A stretch of 64,000 nt of DNA from Bacteroidales bacterium UBA1184 (GTDB lineage Bacteria > Bacteroidota > Bacteroidia > Bacteroidales > ML635J-15), in assembly GCA_002310235.1 (NCBI GenBank), contig DBYO01000032.1:1462-65461 (forward strand), read 5' to 3'. Shown here piece by piece: positions 53,702 through 64,000 of the stretch. The translations under genes were made by a program, and so were the position numbers. The notes below the pieces were generated by a model. The model was not told the DNA's origin, did not search any database, and worked only from the letters and a program-made list of their open reading frames with translations. The first letter of the stretch is position 1. Each line of letters opens with the position of its first letter.

Positions 53702-55492
53702 ATGAAGAACATACGCAATTTTTGCATAATAGCACATATCGACCACGGAAAGAGCACATTGGCCGACCGTCTCCTACAATATACAGGTACAGTTTCGGAA
53801 CGAAATTTCCAGAATCAGGTTCTTGATGACATGGATTTGGAACGCGAACGAGGCATAACCATAAAAAGTCACGCCATACAGATGGAATATGAGGCAAAGG
53901 ATGGACAGAAATACATTCTTAACCTTATCGATACTCCAGGACACGTGGACTTTTCGTACGAAGTTAGCCGTTCCATAGCTGCATGCGAAGGAGCTCTGCT
54001 GGTAGTTGATGCTACACAGGGTGTTCAGGCTCAGACGATTTCAGTTCTTTATCAGGCTATTGAACACGATTTGGAAATCATTCCTGTGCTTAACAAGATT
54101 GACCTCGATGCTGCTATGCCCGAACTTGTCGAAGACCAGATAATCGACCTTATAGGTTGCGACCGCGAGGATATTCTTCGTGCCAGCGGAAAGACCGGCG
54201 AGGGCGTTGAGGATGTGCTCGAGGCAATCGTAAGCAAGATTCCTGCACCAAAGGGCGACCCCGAAGCTCCGTTCGAGGCTCTTATCTTCGACTCGGTTTT
54301 CAACCCATTCCGTGGAATAGTTGTGTATTTCCGTATTTTCAACGGCACGGTTAATACAAAGGATCTTGTGAAGTTCGTTAATACTGGTCGCGAGTACAAT
54401 GCCGAGGAAATCGGTGTGCTCAAGATGGACTACTCGCCGCGCAAGACTTTGTCGGCAGGCGATGTGGGATACATAATTTCCGGTATCAAGACGGCCGTGG
54501 AGGTGAAGGTTGGTGATACAATAACTCAAGTTGACCGTCCGTGCGCCGAGGCTATTGCCGGTTTCTCGGAAGTGAAACCAATGCTTTATGCCGGTATTTA
54601 TCCTGTCGATGCCGACGACTATGAAGAACTTCGTGCTTCGATAGAAAAGTTGCAGCTCAACGATGCTTCGCTTACATACGATCTCGAATCGTCGGCAGCA
54701 TTGGGATTCGGTTTCCGCTGCGGATTCCTTGGACTGCTTCACATGGAGATTGTTCAGGAACGTCTCGACCGTGAGTTCAAGATGGATGTCATAACTACTG
54801 TTCCAAACGTTCAGTATCTTGCATACACAACCAAGGGCGAGAAGGTTGAGGTTCACAATCCGTCGGGAATGCCTGGACCAAACTATCTCGATCACGTTGA
54901 GGAGCCGTTTATCCGCGGAACGATCATCACAAAGGCCGATTATGTAGGTCCTATAATCAAATTGTGTATCGACAAGCGTGGAACTTTCCTGAATCAGGTT
55001 TACCTGAGTGCCGACCGCGTTGAGTTGCATTTCGACTTGCCGCTTGGCGAAATAGTCTTCGACTTCTATGACAAGCTGAAGAGCATCTCGAAGGGTTATG
55101 CTTCGTTCGACTATCACCAGTCGGAATACAAGTTGTCGAAACTCGTACGTCTCGATATTTTGTTGAACGGCGAAATGGTTGATGCCTTGTCGACGCTAAC
55201 GCATGTAAGCAATGCGCAGACTTTTGGTCGCCGTATGTGCGAAAAACTGAAGGAACTTATCCCTCGCCATCAGTTCGATGTTGCAATTCAGGCAGCAATC
55301 GGCGGAAAGATTATCGCCCGTGAAACTGTGAAGGCTGTACGCAAGGATGTTACTGCTAAATGTTATGGCGGTGATATCACCCGTAAGCGCAAGCTTCTTG
55401 AAAAGCAGAAGGAAGGTAAGAAGCGTATGCGTCAGATAGGTTCGGTCGAAGTTCCGCAGTCGGCATTCCTCGCTGTGCTGAAGCTTGATTAG
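53702..55492 (+). CDS. lepA: translation elongation factor 4
   Basis: [23 protein letters not shown]1 motif, [13 protein letters not shown], and the LepA-specific C-terminal domain ([24 protein letters not shown]). Confidence 0.97.
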
Positions 55493-55594
55493 ACGCTAGC
55501 CTTTTTGTTAACTTTCACGCTTTAATAAATACTTTTCTTTCTTGTTCCTGCTGATGGTATATTATATACCTTCGCGGAAAATTTTGTTTGTATC

Positions 55595-56410
55595 ATGGAA
55601 AAACAGCACGCCCATAAGGAACAACTTTTGAAGATGCAGAAGTTGTATAAGGAATACAGGTCTGCAGTAGCCAATAAATTGCCGGATGAAGATGTTGAAG
55701 CTTCTCGGATTGCTTTTTATGATATTTGCGACAACTACGACTGGATGGATTATGTGGTTGAGGAAAATGGCTGCGAGAAGTTGATTAACATAAAGGATGA
55801 GGTGCTTGTTCCTGCAAAGTATGAGCGTTTAGGTTGTTGCCGCGGGAAGGTCAACGACCGTAAGTTTCCTGTATCTGCCATGTCGGATGGGAAATGGGGA
55901 CTTGTTATGCCAGATGGTTACGGTACGGTAGTACTAGGTTTCGATTACGATGAGATTGAGTGTTTCGACAAGTTTTTTGTCGTTTCGAAGTCGGGTAGGA
56001 AAGGTGTCGCTGACAAAAAGGGCAGATTGCTTGTACCATGCTCGATGGATGACGTTGTTTTCCGTCCTATATTCATAACCAACGAGGATGACGGTCGTTC
56101 GTGGTACGATGACTGTATGTTCGAGCTACGCAGTGGCGACAAGGTAGGTGTGCTCACTATGGATGGCCAGTATGTTAAGCCGTTGTATGATGAAATTTTG
56201 TTTTCAGAAATCCTTGAAACCGATGAGGCTCTTGGCGCTGTACTTGATGGGCGAGACGGATGCGTTTCAGTTGATGGAAAACTTGTTCCCGATGAGGATT
56301 TCGAAAAATACGAGGATAAACTTATATATGCCAAAGGCCGCTACAGCCATCGTTCGTCGTACAACTACGAACTTGACGTGAAAATGGGTTACGCCGAGGG
56401 AAAGATATAA
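55595..56410 (+). CDS. WG (KWG) repeat-containing protein
   Basis: Repeated motifs DGKWGLVMPDG, SGRKGVADKKGRLLVP and GDKVGVLTMDGQYVKP. Confidence 0.7.
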   Translation: MEKQHAHKEQLLKMQKLYKEYRSAVANKLPDEDVEASRIAFYDICDNYDWMDYVVEENGCEKLINIKDEVLVPAKYERLGCCRGKVNDRKFPVSAMSDGKWGLVMPDGYGTVVLGFDYDEIECFDKFFVVSKSGRKGVADKKGRLLVPCSMDDVVFRPIFITNEDDGRSWYDDCMFELRSGDKVGVLTMDGQYVKPLYDEILFSEILETDEALGAVLDGRDGCVSVDGKLVPDEDFEKYEDKLIYAKGRYSHRSSYNYELDVKMGYAEGKI

Positions 56411-56415
56411 AGTGC

Positions 56416-56955
56416 TTATTCCTCTACTGTAATATTCTCGGCAATCAAATCCTTCAGATTGTTGATGATGTTGACATCATTTAGGTTCATACCTTCGAAG
56501 ACTTCCTTAACGTCGGCTGTGCTAAGTTCGAAATAGTCTTCGTCGGTGGTGTACTTGATGATGAAGTTGATGTCCTGGTACTGGCAGATGAAGTTGCTGA
56601 AACATCCGGCAAGGTCGCCTTTGGGTTGCAGGTCGATATGCGAACGCTGGTAGTCGGCGTAGATTTCGGTACCCTTGCCAACTTCCGACTTCAGGTAGAA
56701 CTTGCCGTTGCATAGTTCAGAATGGAATTTCAGCAGGGCTATGCCCATACCAATCTTACGTTCGGGACGCGACGAGTAGAAGGTCTCGTTTATGGCATCC
56801 ATCATCTCCTTGGGCATTCCGCAGCCATTGTCGATAATCTTGAGTGACAGCAAGTCCTGTTTTGCGCTGTCGACCATCTCAATCACAATCTCCGTAGCCT
56901 TTGCACGGATAGAATTGTGAACTATGTCAATTATATGTAAATCAAGTGTTTTCAT
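56416..56955 (-). CDS. GHKL-type (HATPase_c) ATP-binding protein
   Basis: N-box HIIDIVHNSIRA. G1 IIDNGCGMP. G2-like GMGIALLKF. Then GKGTEIY. 179 aa with no sensor or DHp domain. Confidence 0.7.
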   Translation of the reverse strand: MKTLDLHIIDIVHNSIRAKATEIVIEMVDSAKQDLLSLKIIDNGCGMPKEMMDAINETFYSSRPERKIGMGIALLKFHSELCNGKFYLKSEVGKGTEIYADYQRSHIDLQPKGDLAGCFSNFICQYQDINFIIKYTTDEDYFELSTADVKEVFEGMNLNDVNIINNLKDLIAENITVEE

Positions 56956-57680
56956 AATATTATCTGTTCTCCTGTGTGAAGTGCGTTTTTAAGGTTGTCG
57001 AAACTGAAACTGTCCATTTCGAGTACGCTTGAAATTTTGCCGATATCGTCAATGTAGTGGGCATCGGAACTTTGTATGTAGTTGTAGTCGCTGAACCACG
57101 GGAATTTGTCGAAGAAGTTGTTCTTCATGGCGTAATAGCTGAGCTCAAGTGCCTGAAACTTAAGTTTGTCGGGAACAAAAACAAGTTGCGAACTTATGCT
57201 GAATGTGCTGCGGTCAACGTGTGCAGGGATGAAGATTCCGCCCATTTCATATACCTTTTTCTGCAAGTCGAGCATCGGCAGGTCGAGGGCATTTATTAAT
57301 AGGTGGGGAACTTCGTCGAGCACATTTTCTTCCTCGTCAACTACAAACTGGTAGCCGAACTTGTCGGGGTCGTTCTCGAAGAAAATAACCTTCGAATCAA
57401 GAAATTTCTGGAACTCGGCAAGTTTTTCGGCGTTGGGCATAAATCCCAGGCAATGGATTTCCTCCTTGGTTGTGACTTCGGCACCCATCATAACGGCTAT
57501 GCCGTTCTGCTCGCCGATTTTGCGTGTAACTTCGGCATTGAGAGTGCTGTTGTGGTCGGTAAGACCGATAATGTCAAGCCCTTTCTCCTTGGCCTTTGCG
57601 ATTATGGCAGACGGACTCATCTCTATGTCGCCACAAGGTGACAACACAGAGTGCATGTGTAGGTCTGCGCGGAATTTCAT
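56952..57680 (-). CDS. PHP domain phosphoesterase
   Basis: DLHMHSVLSPCGD and GLTDHNS metal-binding His motifs of the PHP family. ATGA-type overlap with the downstream gene. Confidence 0.8.
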   Translation of the reverse strand: MKFRADLHMHSVLSPCGDIEMSPSAIIAKAKEKGLDIIGLTDHNSTLNAEVTRKIGEQNGIAVMMGAEVTTKEEIHCLGFMPNAEKLAEFQKFLDSKVIFFENDPDKFGYQFVVDEEENVLDEVPHLLINALDLPMLDLQKKVYEMGGIFIPAHVDRSTFSISSQLVFVPDKLKFQALELSYYAMKNNFFDKFPWFSDYNYIQSSDAHYIDDIGKISSVLEMDSFSFDNLKNALHTGEQIIL

Positions 57681-57695
57681 GACTGGAAAGTCTTG

Positions 57696-58025
57696 TTACT
57701 TAATAAGTTCGTACAGTTTGCCGCAAAGCATGAATGTAGGTTCTGAACTTGAGAGCACAGCCACATCGTTGTCCTTTGCAAATTCGAGCATATCGTCATC
57801 GGGAACACCGTTGCGAACAATGATAATTGCAGGAACATCCTTTAGAGCGGCAATCGAAGCCACGTTCTTGTGTGTCTGCATTGTAATCCAAACCTGTCCA
57901 CTCTTTGCATTGCCCATTACGTCGCTGAGCAAATCAGATGAGTATGCGCTCTTTACATCAGCGTCCATATTTACCTCGTTGTAAACCTTGAGGTTTAATT
58001 TTTCTATTATGTCTTTCAGTATCAT
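57696..58025 (-). CDS. DRTGG domain protein
   Basis: The ATG at 58025 gives MILKDIIEKLNLKVY...SSDLLSDVM...VWITMQTHKNVASIAALKDVPAIIIVRNG. It is a paralogue of 59983-60324. The ORF-track extension to 58079 runs through the intergenic hairpin. Confidence 0.7.
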   Translation of the reverse strand: MILKDIIEKLNLKVYNEVNMDADVKSAYSSDLLSDVMGNAKSGQVWITMQTHKNVASIAALKDVPAIIIVRNGVPDDDMLEFAKDNDVAVLSSSEPTFMLCGKLYELIK

Positions 58026-58064
58026 ATCGTTAATTGTTTTTATTCTTAAATCGTTAAATTTAGT

Positions 58065-58084
58065 AGACGTTGCACGCAACGTCT
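58065..58084. repeat. GC-rich palindromic hairpin, copy 2
   Basis: agacgttgcacgcaacgtct. Same core as 8703-8728, with a paired C:G to A:T change next to the core. Followed by ctctacaat. Confidence 0.7.
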
Positions 58085-58160
58085 CTACAATTGAATCATC
58101 AAATCATCAAATCTTCAAATCAATCAAATCTTTAAATTTTTAAATCCTTAAATCATTAAT
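58085..58160. repeat. degenerate 7-8 nt A/T-rich tandem repeat (ATCAAATC/TTTAAATC)
   Basis: ctacaattgaatcatcaaatcatcaaatcttcaaatcaatcaaatctttaaatttttaaatccttaaatcattaatc. Confidence 0.7.
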
Positions 58161-59498
58161 CTATAGCGTTTTCAGCTCTTCTCCCCAGATGTCGAACATC
58201 ACCTTGTAGAATTCGTCCATCTTCTTGTGGGCGAAAATGCAATTCTCGATTTTGCTTTCGTTGCGGATGACATCCTCTGCCAGAGCGTTGCAAGTCGGAG
58301 CTCCGCAAGCCGAGCAGTCGATTCCTGGCAACATTCCTTCTATGCGCTTCATATTTTCGACCATGCGGAAGGCAATCTGAAGGTTGTCGTTAAGTTTCAG
58401 GATCGAACGAGGCTTTATTTCATCAACCTTTACCATTTCGGAAATCTTTTTGGCAAATTCCTTGTTGTTAAAGGCTACTTTCTGGTCGGAGTCTTCTTTT
58501 TTCGGCTTGCTGTCGATGATTTCGGCACGTGCTTTCAGTTTTTGCTTTGCAACAAATCGGTTTGTTGGGCAGAGAACACCGCCTACGCAACTTTGGTCGC
58601 AGGCTCGCATTTCAACTAAGCCGTTTGCACTAATATCTTCGTCTTCAACCTTTTCCAAGAACTCGATGGCGTTTCGTATTCCATCTACAGCAAAGCACGA
58701 ATTGTTGAAGTTGCGCGATTCGCCAGTTGTAAGTCCCCAAAGTACATCGTTTCCTGTAAGACTATGATTAATAGGCTCTACGATTGATTTTGAGTTGCTT
58801 AGCATCAGTTTTACCTTGTTGTAGAGGAAGTCCATGTTGATTACGCCTGTTATGAAAGATTTCTTTCCTTCGGCGGGACTTTTCACTGCGGCAATCTTTG
58901 CAGCGCAAGGAGATACATAGAAAATACCAATGTCCTCGCTTGGAATGCCAGCTTCTACCAGTCGTTGGCGGATAACTATCGAGGCGATGTCTAAAGGTGC
59001 GCTAAGGTGTATGATGTTGTGCACCAGCGATGGGAATCTTACCTGTATAAGTCGCACGATAGCAGGGCAGTATGGCGATATGAAAGTGTCTATTTCGTCG
59101 TGCTCGGCCATGTACTGCTTGTATAGTTCAATGAGGAACGATACGGCGTGTTCGACTTCGTAGGTGTGGGTGAAGCCTATTTTCTTGAGGCAGGCGTATA
59201 TCTGCGAGGTCTTTACATCGTTTGGGAATTGTCCGATGAAAGTGGCAGGAACCAGAGCGATGCGGTACTTGTAGTCGTCGAGCAGTTCGAAGTCGTCCTG
59301 CTTGATGTATATTGCATGGTTTGGACAAACCTTGAAGCATTCTCCGCAGTCGATGCATTTGTTGCTGAAAATAACCGCTTTGCCTTTCCTGATTCGGATG
59401 GCTTCGGTAGGACAAGACCTTAGGCAGTGCGTACATCCGGTGCACACATTGCGGTCAACGCGAAGCGCGTGGTAGAAGTATGATCCGTTTTCACTCAT
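58161..59498 (-). CDS. [FeFe]-hydrogenase-like (HydS/group C-type putative sensory) iron-sulfur protein
   Basis: N-terminal 2x[4Fe-4S] CTGCTHCLRSCP / CIDCGECFKVCP. H-cluster-like motifs SPYCPAI (L1), VSPCAAK (L2) and EMRACDQSCVGG (L3). C-terminal CSACGAPTCNALAEDV...C putative Fe-S domain. Confidence 0.7.
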   Translation of the reverse strand: MSENGSYFYHALRVDRNVCTGCTHCLRSCPTEAIRIRKGKAVIFSNKCIDCGECFKVCPNHAIYIKQDDFELLDDYKYRIALVPATFIGQFPNDVKTSQIYACLKKIGFTHTYEVEHAVSFLIELYKQYMAEHDEIDTFISPYCPAIVRLIQVRFPSLVHNIIHLSAPLDIASIVIRQRLVEAGIPSEDIGIFYVSPCAAKIAAVKSPAEGKKSFITGVINMDFLYNKVKLMLSNSKSIVEPINHSLTGNDVLWGLTTGESRNFNNSCFAVDGIRNAIEFLEKVEDEDISANGLVEMRACDQSCVGGVLCPTNRFVAKQKLKARAEIIDSKPKKEDSDQKVAFNNKEFAKKISEMVKVDEIKPRSILKLNDNLQIAFRMVENMKRIEGMLPGIDCSACGAPTCNALAEDVIRNESKIENCIFAHKKMDEFYKVMFDIWGEELKTL

Positions 59499-59563
59499 AG
59501 GCCAATTTTTTTGGGGCTAACAGGCTCGCAGGCTCAAAGGCTTGAAGTTTGTTAGCTGCTGAG

Positions 59564-59980
59564 TCAATTTTTTAGAAAAACTGTCATTGTTATTGTTGTT
59601 CCGACGCCCAATTCCGTCTGGATGTCGAGCTTGTCGGTGTTCTTCTTCATGTTTGGAAGTCCCATGCCAGCACCGAATCCCATTTCCCTAACTTTTTGCG
59701 AGGCAGTTGAGTAGCCTTCGGTCATAGCAAGTTCTATGTTGGGGATGCCCGGTCCTTGGTCGGCGACGACCATCACAATCTTGTCGCCATCGATGTCGAT
59801 GTCGATCTTTCCACCGTATGCGTGTGCAACTGCATTAATTTCGGCTTCGTAAAGAGCGACCACAATGCGCTTGATGCTCGACGGATCAACGTTGAGCTGC
59901 TTCAATGTCTTCTTTACGCTTCCCGATGCGTTGCCGGCATTGGTGAAATTGCCTTTTTCAATGTCAAATGTGTAATGCAT
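59564..59980 (-). CDS. small GHKL ATPase / anti-sigma-factor-like serine kinase family protein
   Basis: EAEINAVAHAY (N-box), VADQGPGIPN (G1), GFGAGMGLPNMKK (G2). 138 aa, the size of RsbW/SpoIIAB-type proteins. Confidence 0.7.
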   Translation of the reverse strand: MHYTFDIEKGNFTNAGNASGSVKKTLKQLNVDPSSIKRIVVALYEAEINAVAHAYGGKIDIDIDGDKIVMVVADQGPGIPNIELAMTEGYSTASQKVREMGFGAGMGLPNMKKNTDKLDIQTELGVGTTITMTVFLKN

Positions 59981-59982
59981 AA

Positions 59983-60324
59983 TTAATACATGGGGTTAAT
60001 GCCGTGAGTATAAAGTAGTCCACTGACTTTGAATATACTATACTCGGTCTCGATTATTGTAATGTCGTTGTCAATCGCATGTTCAACCATCTCTTCGTCT
60101 GCGGTCTTGCCACGGGCGAGGATTATGGTGTTTATCTCGGCCATTTCGGCTGTGCGTATTGTCTGTATGTTGCACAAGCCAGTGATTAGCAGCGAACATT
60201 CGCCACCTAGACGCAGTACATCGCTCATCAGGTCCGACGAAAATGCGTTTGTCAGTTCTTCGTTGTTATCTTGGCAGCCAACTATTCTGCCGTTTAGCAA
60301 TTCTGCTATTTCTTTCGCTTTCAT
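59983..60324 (-). CDS. DRTGG domain protein
   Basis: SSDLMSDVL...LLITGLCNIQTIRTAEMAEINTIILARGK pattern. The start ATG overlaps the ygiQ stop (ATGA at 60321-60324). Confidence 0.7.
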   Translation of the reverse strand: MKAKEIAELLNGRIVGCQDNNEELTNAFSSDLMSDVLRLGGECSLLITGLCNIQTIRTAEMAEINTIILARGKTADEEMVEHAIDNDITIIETEYSIFKVSGLLYTHGINPMY

Positions 60325-62276
60325 TTCTTTTTTAATTGTTTCGCAAATGTAGTTCTTTTTATTGAATGTTTGGTTGATTCCGACTTGTTTTTTTTCTGTG
60401 GTTCTTCATCTGTTTTTCTAGACGATGCTTTCATCTTCCTGATTATGTCGTCTCTTCCCATCTGAAGCAGCCGTTTTTCAATCTTCTTGCGTGCTTCTGG
60501 AGTGTACCAGAAGAAGTACATGTTTTGGTTTTCTCGTTCTTCGCGCGACTTGGGCACATATACTTTCTCCATTGTGTATGGGTTCAGTTCGGTGTAGTAC
60601 ATCACGGTCGAGAGCGTCATTGGTGTGGGGGTGAAAGTCTGCACTTGTTCGGGACAGATACCGAGGTCGCTTATTTGCGCCATAAGTTCGGCCATATCTT
60701 CTTCCTTGCAACCCGGGTGAGCCGAGATAAAATAGGGTATGAGTTGTTGTTTGAGTCCGTATTTTTTGTTAGTGCGGTCGAACAAATCCTTCAGTTCACC
60801 AAACTTGTCGAAAGGAGTCTTGCGCATGAGTTCCAAAACCTTGGGAGAGGTGTGCTCGGGAGCAACTTTCAGACGTCCCGATACGAACTTTGAGATAACA
60901 AGTTCGAGATATTCCTCGTTTATACGGTCTGTTTCGGCATTGCCGGTCTTGTGAAGGGCTATGTCGTATCGTATACCACTGCCTATGCTTATCTTCTTTA
61001 TGCCTCTGACTTCCAGTGCTTTCTTGTAAAGTTTGCAAAGTTCTTCGTGCGAAGTGTTGAGGTTCGGGCAAATCTTTGGTGCTATGCACGACGGACGCTT
61101 GCACTTGCGGCACTGTTCCTCGTTGTTTCCGTGCATGCGGTACATGTTTGCCGACGGTGCGCCGATGTCGGAAATGTGTCCTTTGAAGTTCGGCATACGC
61201 GAAATGCGTTCCAGTTCGGCGATTATGGATTTTTCGGAGCGACTCGAAATTTGCTTGCCCTGATGTGCCGCTATGGTGCAGAACGAACAACCGCCGAAAC
61301 AGCCGCGATGTATTGTCACCGAGTTCTTTATCATCTCGTAGGCGGGAATGTCGGGCTTGCCGTTGTAGCGCGGATGCGGAAGTCGAGTAAACGGCAGCGC
61401 ATAAATGCTGTCCATTTCGTTTTCCGACAGAGGTTCGTATGTTGGGTTTACAATCAGTTTCGAATGTTCAAGTTGCTGGGTTATACGCCTGTTGGTGAAC
61501 GAGTTGGCTTCGCGCTCGACGATTACGAAGTTTTCGGCGTAGTTGCGCTTGTCGGCAAGAATTTCGGCGTAGGAGTGAAGTTCAATGTCGTCCTTTTTCT
61601 TGTCGTTTTCGTCGCTGAGGTAGGCAATCTGCCTTATGTTGAAGCAGTTGTAGTGATGTCCGTCGCGGTTTATGTGGTCGGCGACTTCCACAATGGACTT
61701 TTCCGACATTCCATAGCAAAGTATGTCGGCTCCCGACATTTCGAGCATCGACGACAATATTTTGTCCTGCCAGTAGTCGTAGTGTGCAAAGCGGCGCATC
61801 GAGGCTTCGATTCCACCGATAACGATTGGCGTGTCGGGATATATGTCCTTGAGTATCTGACAGTAAACCTTGGTTGCGTAGTCGGGGCGATGACCGCTTT
61901 GTCCGCCAGGCGTGTAGGCGTCGTCGCTGCGGAGACGTTTGTTGGCGGTGTAGTGGTTGAGCATGCTGTCGATGTTTCCTGCCGAAACGCCAAAGAACAG
62001 GCGTGGCGCACCGAACTTGCGGAAGTCGCGGAGGTCGTCCTGCCAGTTGGGTTGTGGAATTACTGCCACGCGGTAGCCTGCGTTCTGCAAAACCCTTGCT
62101 ATCACGGCCGGACCGAACGACGGATGGTCAACAAAAGCATCGCCACTGACGAGGATAACGTCGATATAGTCCCAGCCAAAAGCCTTCAGTTCCTTGACTG
62201 AAGTTGGAAAATAGTCGAGGATGTTGGTGCGTTGAATCTTCTTGCCGTTACGTTTGTTATCTAGCGAAGAGTTCAT
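60321..62276 (-). CDS. ygiQ: YgiQ family (UPF0313) radical SAM protein
   Basis: N-terminal VSGDAFVDHPSFG block. Radical SAM cluster HRGCFGGCSFCTIAAHQGK. ~650 aa with a basic C-terminal tail, as in YgiQ. Confidence 0.85.
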   Translation of the reverse strand: MNSSLDNKRNGKKIQRTNILDYFPTSVKELKAFGWDYIDVILVSGDAFVDHPSFGPAVIARVLQNAGYRVAVIPQPNWQDDLRDFRKFGAPRLFFGVSAGNIDSMLNHYTANKRLRSDDAYTPGGQSGHRPDYATKVYCQILKDIYPDTPIVIGGIEASMRRFAHYDYWQDKILSSMLEMSGADILCYGMSEKSIVEVADHINRDGHHYNCFNIRQIAYLSDENDKKKDDIELHSYAEILADKRNYAENFVIVEREANSFTNRRITQQLEHSKLIVNPTYEPLSENEMDSIYALPFTRLPHPRYNGKPDIPAYEMIKNSVTIHRGCFGGCSFCTIAAHQGKQISSRSEKSIIAELERISRMPNFKGHISDIGAPSANMYRMHGNNEEQCRKCKRPSCIAPKICPNLNTSHEELCKLYKKALEVRGIKKISIGSGIRYDIALHKTGNAETDRINEEYLELVISKFVSGRLKVAPEHTSPKVLELMRKTPFDKFGELKDLFDRTNKKYGLKQQLIPYFISAHPGCKEEDMAELMAQISDLGICPEQVQTFTPTPMTLSTVMYYTELNPYTMEKVYVPKSREERENQNMYFFWYTPEARKKIEKRLLQMGRDDIIRKMKASSRKTDEEPQKKNKSESTKHSIKRTTFAKQLKKK

Positions 62277-62862
62277 TTTGGAACATCGGTGAAAATGTTG
62301 TAGTCGGTGCCATCGGGTATAGTCCGTATTCTGGCATCAGCTGGTGATGGTTGCCTTCGTGAATGCTTACAGCTATGCTGATGGTCGATTTGTCGGTAAT
62401 CTTATAGTCGGCACCGAAGTATCCAGAGAACGAAGTCTTGTTGCCCTTGTAGTAATCGCAGAAACTGACGGCTGCAGCACCGTATACGTTTATTCTTGGT
62501 GTCAGCGAGTAGGAACCTTTGGCAAACAGCGTGTATCGTGGAAATCCGTACGGACTTTTGCTTTCTGTGTTTGCTGATGCGGAAAACATGGAGTAGGAGA
62601 CGGCAAATCCGCCCGAAACGGTGAATTTGTCGGTTACTTTGTAGCCGAATTCTGGTGCAATAAAGCCTGTTCCGAACGCATGTCCGCCAAATCCGCCAAC
62701 AGATACACCGGTGCTGATTCGGCTTACAAAACGAGAATCCTTGTCATGCTTTGTCTTTACAAGTGCTGATGAGTCTGGTTCATAGAGATATAGCTTGTCG
62801 TTCTGTGCGAATGCCGACAATGCGAAAACCATAATTAATATTGCAAATATGCACCTTTTCAT
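62257..62862 (-). CDS. outer-membrane beta-barrel (porin-family) protein
   Basis: Signal MKRCIFAILIMVFALSAFAQ. Alternating hydrophobic beta-strand pattern rich in G/Y/F/S. 20-nt overlap with the ygiQ start. Confidence 0.6.
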   Translation of the reverse strand: MKRCIFAILIMVFALSAFAQNDKLYLYEPDSSALVKTKHDKDSRFVSRISTGVSVGGFGGHAFGTGFIAPEFGYKVTDKFTVSGGFAVSYSMFSASANTESKSPYGFPRYTLFAKGSYSLTPRINVYGAAAVSFCDYYKGNKTSFSGYFGADYKITDKSTISIAVSIHEGNHHQLMPEYGLYPMAPTTTFSPMFQNELFAR

Positions 62863-62928
62863 TTTTAATGAAAATTTGCCGTAAAGGTAAACAATAATTA
62901 TGAGAGAGCAATCGGTGTTAAGAAAATT

Positions 62929-63381
62929 TTAGTAGATGTGATGTGTTAGTATTTCCAAATACTTTTTGTCAATCTCGTCGAAGGTGGCAAGTTTCTCGCT
63001 GTCGATGTCGAGTTCGGCGACAACTTCGCCGTCGCGGATAATAGGCACTACGATTTCGCTTCGCGATGCACTGCTGCAGGCAATGTGTCCAGGAAATTCC
63101 TCGACATCCTCGACAACAATCGTACGTTTTTCCTTCCATGCTGTTCCGCACACACCACGACCGAATTTTATCCTCGTACAAGCTACAGGACCTTGGAATG
63201 GGCCAAGCACAAGTTCTTGTCCAACAACGCGGTAAAAGCCAGTCCACCAGAAGTGGAAGGTCTCTTGTATGATAGCAGCAACGTTTGCCATAAGTGCAAT
63301 CTCGTCGTGTTCCGATTCGGCAAATGCTTTTACCTGTTCGATAAGGTTTTCGTATTTTTTTTGTTTTTCGGTGCTGTCCAT
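62929..63381 (-). CDS. msrC: GAF-domain free methionine-(R)-sulfoxide reductase
   Basis: WTGFYRVVGQELVLGPFQGPVACTRIKFGRGVCGTAW...FPGHIACSSASRSEIVVPI closely parallels E. coli YebR/MsrC as I recall it. Confidence 0.75.
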   Translation of the reverse strand: MDSTEKQKKYENLIEQVKAFAESEHDEIALMANVAAIIQETFHFWWTGFYRVVGQELVLGPFQGPVACTRIKFGRGVCGTAWKEKRTIVVEDVEEFPGHIACSSASRSEIVVPIIRDGEVVAELDIDSEKLATFDEIDKKYLEILTHHIY

Positions 63382-63383
63382 TG

Positions 63384-64000
63384 CTATAGTTTTATGATGT
63401 GAGGGGCGGGGAAGTGCATTCCTGCCATTGGCTTGTGGTTTTTGCGGGCTGTTTCTAATACCGAAATTCGTGTTTCTCTGGCTTCTACTGGGTTAAAGTC
63501 GTATATGGCGGAAATTTCCGGATGTTCGATTTGCAGGTCAATCGCGTGCATGATGTCGCCCACAATTAGTGTTTCGCCAATGTCGTACATGGTATGGCCG
63601 GGCGTATGTCCGTATGCTGCAATGGTTACAATCCCATCGATAATTGTGTCGCCAGCATGAAATGTTTCGTATCTGCCATCGTATGCCTTAAGCATCTTGT
63701 CAACTGTTTCGTTGTCTTTTAATACACCTACAGTCCAAATTTCCAATTCCATATCGGAAAAGTGCAGCTTGGCATTTTTGAAAACTGCCTCGCCGTCGGC
63801 AGTAAGGAGTCCGCCAATATGGTCGCCGTGGAAATGGGTTATGCAAATGTCGGTTATCTCGTCTGGCTGAAGGCCTATAGAGTCCAGTTTTTCGAGCAGA
63901 CGGCCGTTTTGCGATGTGCCAAGTCCTGCATCAAAGAGAATATTCTTGTCGCCACGTTCCAGCAGAAACACATTTATCGAGTTGTCGATGTAGTCATCTG
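63384..64000 (-). CDS. MBL-fold metallo-hydrolase (5' end beyond the right edge, partial)
   Basis: HxHxDH motif in ICITHFHGDHIGG. Later AYGHTPGH. The frame stays open upstream of the GTG at 63971 to the window end. Confidence 0.75.
   Translation of the reverse strand, partial: DDYIDNSINVFLLERGDKNILFDAGLGTSQNGRLLEKLDSIGLQPDEITDICITHFHGDHIGGLLTADGEAVFKNAKLHFSDMELEIWTVGVLKDNETVDKMLKAYDGRYETFHAGDTIIDGIVTIAAYGHTPGHTMYDIGETLIVGDIMHAIDLQIEHPEISAIYDFNPVEARETRISVLETARKNHKPMAGMHFPAPHIIKL

Follow-up and report, generated by a model that had tools for sequence, protein, structure and literature searches.

What does a putative hydrogen sensor serve in a genome whose assembly holds no other hydrogenase? 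The question is raised by a gene cluster on the minus strand of a 64,000-nt stretch of DNA (hereafter, the window) from the metagenome-assembled genome (MAG) of Bacteroidales bacterium UBA1184 (labelled G000; rumen source), an assembly of 2.82 Mb that is 90.85% complete and in which the window lies within the 101.6-kb contig C45. A first-pass annotation of the window had described an orphan [FeFe]-hydrogenase-like sensory module with DRTGG, GHKL ATPase and PHP partners, translationally coupled and perhaps functionally linked to the radical SAM protein YgiQ. The open reading frame (ORF) listing and profile searches gave the minus-strand order ygiQ, DRTGG-1, K1, HydS, DRTGG-2, PHP and K2; this seven-gene order, the ATGA overlaps between ygiQ and DRTGG-1 (60321-60324) and between PHP and K2 (56952-56955), and the 135-nt spacer between HydS and DRTGG-2 were all as first described. 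We consider it likely that the locus is an ordinary, expressed copy of a widespread group D sensory [FeFe]-hydrogenase cassette, here in a stand-alone six-gene form (DRTGG-1, K1, HydS, DRTGG-2, PHP, K2) with apparently its own promoter and transcribed in the rumen, an explanation that takes in the mechanism proposed below.

A group D putative sensory hydrogenase

HydS (445 aa; 58161-59498) carried two N-terminal 4Fe-4S motifs with Fer4-family matches at residues 13-64, an Fe_hyd_lg_C domain (PF02906; 75 bits) and a C-terminal PF04060 match, and a Pfam search found no PAS domain. The eight N-terminal cysteines were retained by 74 or more of 75 homologues; invariant were the H-cluster cysteines (C144, C198, C300 and C304) and those of the C-terminal Cx2Cx4Cx16C motif (C395, C398, C403 and C420) in 75/75. 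All 16 cluster cysteines were therefore invariant or nearly so across the 75 family members, the SPYCP and SPC motifs were present, and HydS kept the full set of ligands for its [4Fe-4S] clusters (two N-terminal, one C-terminal) and for the H-cluster. The site of the group A proton-relay Cys299 (CpI numbering) was occupied by Tyr (position 143) in the window protein and by Phe or Tyr in 75/75, and the Met353 site by Ser (position 196), with Thr or Ser in 67 of the 75.

Using criteria drawn from PMC8163306 and PMC13104023, we compared HydS with the group D (M2e) enzyme TamHydS of Thermoanaerobacter mathranii. The two shared about 34% identity over the main 271-residue block (E = 1e-54), with the remainder colinear, as well as the same domain order of two [4Fe-4S] motifs, H-domain and Cx2Cx4Cx16C motif without PAS, and kinase-like ATPase neighbours. 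TamHydS likewise lacks Cys at the C299 site, where it has Ala and the window family Tyr or Phe; SSACP and SPC stand at the aligned sites (ISSACP against ISPYCP, ISPCAAK against VSPCAAK), the C-terminal motif is closely alike, and both have Ser or Thr at the M353 site. In contrast to TamHydS, no AraC-type regulator lay beside the window cassette, and the TamHydS papers do not discuss DRTGG, PHP or second-ATPase partners. In a maximum-likelihood tree TamHydS fell inside the HydL clade (support 100/98), albeit on a long branch and from a partial sequence damaged by optical character recognition in the paper's supplementary table, and A3 HydA and PAS-type (group C) HydS formed separate clades. No structure of a group D [FeFe] hydrogenase has been solved.

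The Fe-S protein is thus a group D (M2e) putative H2-sensing [FeFe] hydrogenase, for which H-cluster binding and a response to H2 are predicted from sequence; ligand conservation and the HydE, HydF and HydG encoded in the genome (see below) lend this indirect support. The first-pass reading of a sensory module whose partners resemble a kinase and a phosphatase is supported. Parabacteroides and Proteiniphilum, both Bacteroidales, appear among the 70 group D enzymes tabulated in PMC13104023 (supplementary Table S6), so this kind was already known in the order, and the window cassette is a further example of a known, mechanistically unsolved group D sensor type.

Partner proteins of the sensor

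Two small DRTGG proteins flank the sensor, DRTGG-1 (113 aa; 59983-60324; Pfam E = 5e-5) and its paralogue DRTGG-2 (109 aa from its ATG; 57696-58025). Their Pfam scores of 23.5 and 18.5 bits were marginal, the cut-off being 25.2, but the two families matched each other in hhalign with a probability of 99.3%, and the AlphaFold model of DRTGG-1, a single DRTGG domain (predicted local distance difference test, pLDDT, 93.8), had as its top match the DRTGG protein AF1212 (PDB 2ioj; template-modelling (TM) score 0.83) and as its next best the CBS-DRTGG region of a pyrophosphatase. Profile and fold evidence therefore confirm both assignments although they fall below the Pfam cut-off. Both paralogues carried an SDLxSDV element (SDLLSDV in DRTGG-2) in which D31, L32, S34 and V36 were invariant and S30 and D35 nearly so, and which sits on a strand-loop-helix in the DRTGG-1 model.

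K1 (138 aa; 59564-59980) is a SpoIIAB/RsbW-like GHKL ATPase of the serine-kinase type. It matched TIGR01925 at 65.9 bits (E = 3e-18), below the cut-off of 135, and matched the SpoIIAB structures 1til and 1th8 (E of about 5e-6) and RsbW (6m36) over its full length, with its N, G1 and G2 boxes conserved in 70 homologues. The PHP-family metal-dependent phosphoesterase (PF02811; 242 aa; 56952-57680) retained the metal-binding motifs HxH, DH, E, H and DAH, conserved in 51 homologues, and weakly matched the phosphoesterase 3e0f. K2 (179 aa; 56416-56955) combined a GHKL domain (HATPase_c) with a small C-terminal alpha/beta domain; the best full-length fold matches of its model (pLDDT 87.8) were the N-terminal ATPases of PMS2, MutL, MLH1 and TopoVI-B, at TM scores of about 0.5. 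Judged from sequence and models, the partners of the cassette look active or correctly folded. Literature searches on DRTGG with hydrogenase, and on PHP or ATPase with group D, found nothing relevant.

Conservation of the cassette and comparison with known systems

Across 80 related loci, mostly from Bacteroidales, Marinilabiliaceae and Lentimicrobiaceae, DRTGG-1, K1 and HydS occurred together in nearly all, and in about 50 they were preceded or followed by DRTGG-2, PHP and K2. A common layout, verified by Pfam in the isolate Carboxylicivirga fragile, was D1-K1-HydS-D2-PHP-K2-x132-HydB-HydA-HydC, where D1 and D2 are the DRTGG proteins and x132 is a protein 5' of HydB. The five partner genes are thus co-inherited with HydS across Bacteroidales. 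The best 120 matches of the protein search were Bacteroidales-type homologues only, and the context in Firmicutes was taken from PMC3561251. No sigma factor, transcription factor or DNA-binding gene was conserved beside the cassette in the 80 loci, which agrees with the lack of a DNA-binding output in the first-pass annotation, although a full scan of the 64-kb window for such genes was not made.

We considered x132 as an output or regulator and rejected it, as it is a HydD-like, degenerate thioredoxin-type [2Fe-2S] ferredoxin. A conserved protein of 129-135 aa always preceded HydB (27 loci; L049:13023-13430, L109:5024-5413); it resembles the clostridial thioredoxin-like [2Fe-2S] ferredoxin, retains three cysteines only and is probably the HydD subunit.

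Group D loci often lie upstream of trimeric bifurcating group A hydrogenases (PMC3561251). Many Bacteroidales relatives share this placement, with the cassette immediately upstream of electron-bifurcating hydD-hydB-hydA-hydC (e.g., Carboxylicivirga locus L049), whereas in the window genome and its 12 closest species the two are not adjacent. The literature words it as "often", so the placement should be read as a tendency rather than as a strict criterion for group D.

The first-pass annotation had also likened the module to hfs-type loci and cited Thermotogae. These labels belong elsewhere, as the hfs loci and Thermotoga maritima TM1420-1422 are PAS-containing group C (M2f) systems with a PP2C-type serine phosphatase (PMC11837493, PMC3561251) and not the DRTGG/PHP set. 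Group C systems (TmHydS of T. maritima, Ruminococcus albus HydS and Thermoanaerobacterium hfsABCD) share with the window cassette a slow sensory-type H-domain and a C-terminal [4Fe-4S] cluster, also lie next to catalytic [FeFe] hydrogenases, and kinase/phosphatase logic has been proposed for both. Unlike the window cassette, however, they have a PAS domain and a PP2C-type serine phosphatase (HfsC) and no DRTGG or PHP genes; Pfam found neither a PAS nor a SpoIIE/PP2C domain in the seven window genes. The two groups occupy separate clades of the tree and in Carboxylicivirga locus L049 stand side by side as distinct units. In Marinilabiliales isolates (L049:5899-8932; L043, L053), a 619-621-aa group C-type HydS that appears to lack PAS, a SpoIIE/PP2C gene and a second HydCBA operon lie directly upstream of the group D cassette, placing two different sensor systems next to each other.

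Comparison with the partner-switching systems SpoIIAB-SpoIIAA-SpoIIE and RsbW-RsbV-RsbU gave a mixed picture. K1 is alike over its full length, and its gene is immediately preceded by that of a small partner protein and shares an operon with a phosphoesterase gene, whereas the STAS antagonist, PP2C phosphatase and sigma factor of those systems are replaced by a DRTGG fold and PHP, with no associated sigma factor in the 80 loci. The kinase/phosphatase partner-switch logic suggested in the first-pass annotation thus finds kinase-like and phosphatase-like partners here; by analogy, the cassette may work like partner switching while lying outside that family.

Location of the catalytic hydrogenase

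As first annotated, the window held no catalytic hydrogenase or maturase, and there was none on the rest of contig C45. Pfam and tblastn searches of the whole assembly found no HydA, HydB or HydC, only ferredoxin-motif matches, and HydS was the only PF02906 match in the 2.82 Mb. The genome-wide search suggested with the first-pass annotation thus had a divided outcome: hydA, hydB and hydC were not found in the 90.85%-complete MAG, and the maturases HydF (461 bits), HydG (514 bits) and HydE (354 bits) were found on three other contigs, all above their curated cut-offs.

Among 40 relatives, all 20 of the other HydS-bearing genomes had a group A HydA (>225 bits). Each of the 12 closest species had exactly one 597-aa HydA, on another contig or far from the cassette, so the unlinked placement of cassette and hydABC is a feature of the clade, and what sets G000 apart is just the complete lack of hydABC. 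G041, its closest relative, has x129-HydB-HydA-HydC adjoining SDR, MaoC, CoA-transferase and ETF genes; both there and in G044, the sequence that flanks hydCAB corresponds to the end of G000 contig C27, which terminates within this sequence.

The source sample was represented by run X1, in which 97% of the sampled words of the window were found. A 2,234-nt contig of this run (depth 65) matched the final 1,100 nt of C27 (C27:12490-13589) with 2 mismatches and extended 1,134 nt past its end into MaoC and SDR, and a 2,548-nt contig (depth 70), 93.7% identical to G041, ran across HydC and HydA into the start of HydB. Depths in the sample were 45-50 for the cassette and 40-68 for the C27 contigs. 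No physical link between the C27 end and hydB could be built from the sample contigs, which stop in the divergent intergenic region. The summed depth of hydB was about 1,870, which implies that many strains share the sequence and, in turn, that hydA comes to lie at or near contig ends in several MAGs. In several related rumen MAGs (e.g., G043, G045, G048 and G052), the distance from group A hydA to a contig end was about 2 kb or less. Hydrogenase content and "orphan sensor" calls from such MAGs may accordingly be biased by assembly, with hydABC under-reported.

Taken together, hydABC is most likely present in the organism and was left unassembled. The description of the module as an orphan does not hold up well against a genome that encodes HydE, HydF and HydG, the group A HydA of 20/20 other sensor-bearing relatives, the break of C27 in the hyd flank and the occurrence in the source sample of hydCAB contigs with comparable depth.

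In one alternative, hydABC would have been lost, HydEFG would be kept only for HydS, and the sensor would detect the H2 of neighbours and steer another target, such as fermentation routes. Consistent with such a true orphan are the lack of any HydA, HydB or HydC in the assembly, the unlinking of the cassette from hydABC in the whole clade and the long stem branch of the HydS of this rumen clade, whose members are 92-98% identical to each other and at most 58%, mostly 40-47%, to other homologues. The incompleteness of the MAG, the retention of group A HydA in every other HydS-bearing relative, and the continuation of the broken C27 flank together with hydCAB contigs of matching depth in the source sample make it unlikely, and on the contig-end and depth evidence we set aside true loss as the default. 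The long HydS stem branch coincides with the separation of the cassette from hydABC.

A proposed mechanism for hydrogen signalling

How group C and D sensory [FeFe] hydrogenases relay the H2 signal is an open question, as the first-pass annotation had stated and the literature agrees (PMC8163306, PMC13104023), and the most recent study of TamHydS speaks against a relay through the C-terminal cluster. The conserved set of DRTGG, SpoIIAB-like kinase, PHP and MutL-like ATPase provides concrete candidates for this relay. In the scheme that we propose, HydS would bind H2 at a slow H-cluster and a conformational or redox change would be relayed to K1, which might phosphorylate or sequester a DRTGG protein at the invariant SDLxSDV strand-loop-helix; PHP would then reset the DRTGG state and K2 could act as an ATP-driven clamp. 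Because no DNA-binding partner is conserved, we suggest that the cassette probably controls HydABC, whose genes lie elsewhere in this clade, at the post-translational level. What the window copy itself adds is small, namely that the cassette can work apart from hydABC, an apparent conserved promoter and transcription in the rumen.

Several points weigh against this explanation. The hydCAB contig is unjoined to C27, and as the rumen sample has many congeners, another species may own it; in run X3, one contig with x129-hydB continues upstream for 563 nt, and this part does not match the SDR gene. The five partner proteins are linked to HydS by genomics and not by experiment, and the DRTGG fold, whose phospho-acceptor is so far hypothetical, differs from the STAS fold. 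PHP enzymes are also commoner as esterases of nucleotides and sugar phosphates than as protein phosphatases. TamHydS slowly turns over H2, leaving room for a catalytic role (PMC8163306), and H2 was found not to reduce its C-terminal cluster (PMC13104023), which leaves the path of the signal obscure in this model enzyme too.

A bolder form of the mechanism, which we put forward tentatively and regard as rather doubtful, makes the cassette a self-contained, trans-acting, H2-responsive post-translational switch. The DRTGG proteins would form a novel type of phospho-acceptor or partner-switch module acting through SDLxSDV; a SpoIIAB-like kinase bound to group D HydS would drive them, the PHP phosphatase would reset them and a mini-MutL-like ATPase would gate them. 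In this clade such a switch would act from elsewhere in the genome on the bifurcating HydABC, or on the NADH module of that enzyme.

HydS could instead be a genuine catalytic hydrogenase of low rate, linked for example to ferredoxin, with the GHKL, DRTGG and PHP proteins as ATP-dependent factors of assembly, protection or activity control. TamHydS converts H+ and H2 reversibly and close to the thermodynamic potential (PMC8163306), every electron-transfer cluster is conserved, K2 is nearer to ATPase clamps of the MutL/TopoVI type than to kinases, and HydS is the sole hydrogenase in the assembly. We find this reading quite improbable nonetheless, given the replacement of the proton-relay cysteine by Phe or Tyr in all 75 family members, the low rates of TamHydS (PMC8163306), the likeness of K1 to SpoIIAB/RsbW over its full length and the separate, fully equipped HydABC that nearly always accompanies the cassette.

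Promoter region, transcription and the YgiQ neighbour

Upstream of DRTGG-1 and outside the cassette lies the YgiQ-family radical SAM gene (651 aa; 60321-62276; TIGR03904, 788 bits against a cut-off of 462), and the literature still has YgiQ as uncharacterised, in keeping with the first-pass annotation, which gave it no function. A promoter-like block (60325-60380) carries a Bacteroidetes-type -7 box, TACATTTG, at 60344-60351. This block of about 55 nt 5' of DRTGG-1, with its TAnnTTTG box (TACATTTG, TACCTTTG or TATCTTTG), was kept in 10/10 close relatives whatever the upstream context. TAnnTTTG occurs at chance frequency across the window, so the weight rests only on its conservation upstream of DRTGG-1, and scans of 55400-63600 for sigma-70 promoters and intrinsic terminators gave counts at chance level. 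The conserved block reads AACCRACATTMA...TAC[AC]TTTGCRAA, is retained even inside the extended YgiQ reading frame and may hold a regulatory site besides the -7 box.

Three rumen metatranscriptome runs held contigs identical to the cluster, which are strandless and may include DNA carry-over. One spans the DRTGG-1/K1 junction (X8, 59777-60265), one the HydS-DRTGG-2 spacer (X4, 57970-58220) and one the junction of ygiQ and DRTGG-1 (X18, 60048-60594). RNA depth over DRTGG-1 and K1 was greater than over ygiQ, and in X8 it was zero over the 3' part of ygiQ, a pattern that fits an internal promoter with some read-through.

The first-pass annotation had read the tight coupling to ygiQ as a hint of a functional link. 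The adjacency is not unique to this genome, as a check across genomes found it in five other loci, each from a further species and all within a clade of >90% identity; YgiQ was not within reach of the cassette in any locus whose HydS is at most 58% identical to that of the window. TIGR03904 was single-copy in 35 of 41 relatives, including genomes without an Fe-hydrogenase, three HydS-bearing genomes had no YgiQ, and in about 13 others with HydS it sits elsewhere. In the five YgiQ-adjacent relatives YgiQ ends right after a conserved (R/K)KMK motif and is followed by a gap of 49-131 nt with the promoter-like box (and in two of them also a hairpin). The window protein alone, among the loci compared, has a Lys-rich C-terminal extension of 35 residues (60321-60428 with its stop codon); the ATGA overlap arises because this tail reads through the conserved block, and is a by-product of ORF extension. 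Adjacency and overlap are thus most likely local accidents, and a role of YgiQ in the module, such as cofactor or cluster maturation, which the stop/start overlap, the RNA contigs across the junction and the adjacency in five further species would favour, is largely refuted by this distribution and very hard to credit.

Repeats in the HydS-DRTGG-2 spacer

The longest ORF of DRTGG-2 begins at a TTG (58079), and conservation among homologues begins at the ATG at 58025; with the start taken there, the spacer length of 135 nt (58026-58160) is correct. It contains a palindrome resembling repetitive extragenic palindromic (REP) elements, AGACGTTGC-GT-GCAACGTCT, at 58065-58084, of whose hairpin type the genome has 7 copies. 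The elements follow in the order of A/T-rich GATTTGA-type repeats, TTGTAG and the GC-rich palindrome GACGTTGCnnGCAACGTC. The spacers of relatives (L014-L027) held one to three copies of the palindrome with compensatory changes in the stem, e.g., AGATGTTGC...GCAACATCT, and a second type of hairpin, CATCGCAATGCTTTGCGATG, was also seen. This spacer is a hot spot for small REP-like elements. In locus L014 it is about 770-825 nt long, with two palindromes flanking a coding-like stretch.

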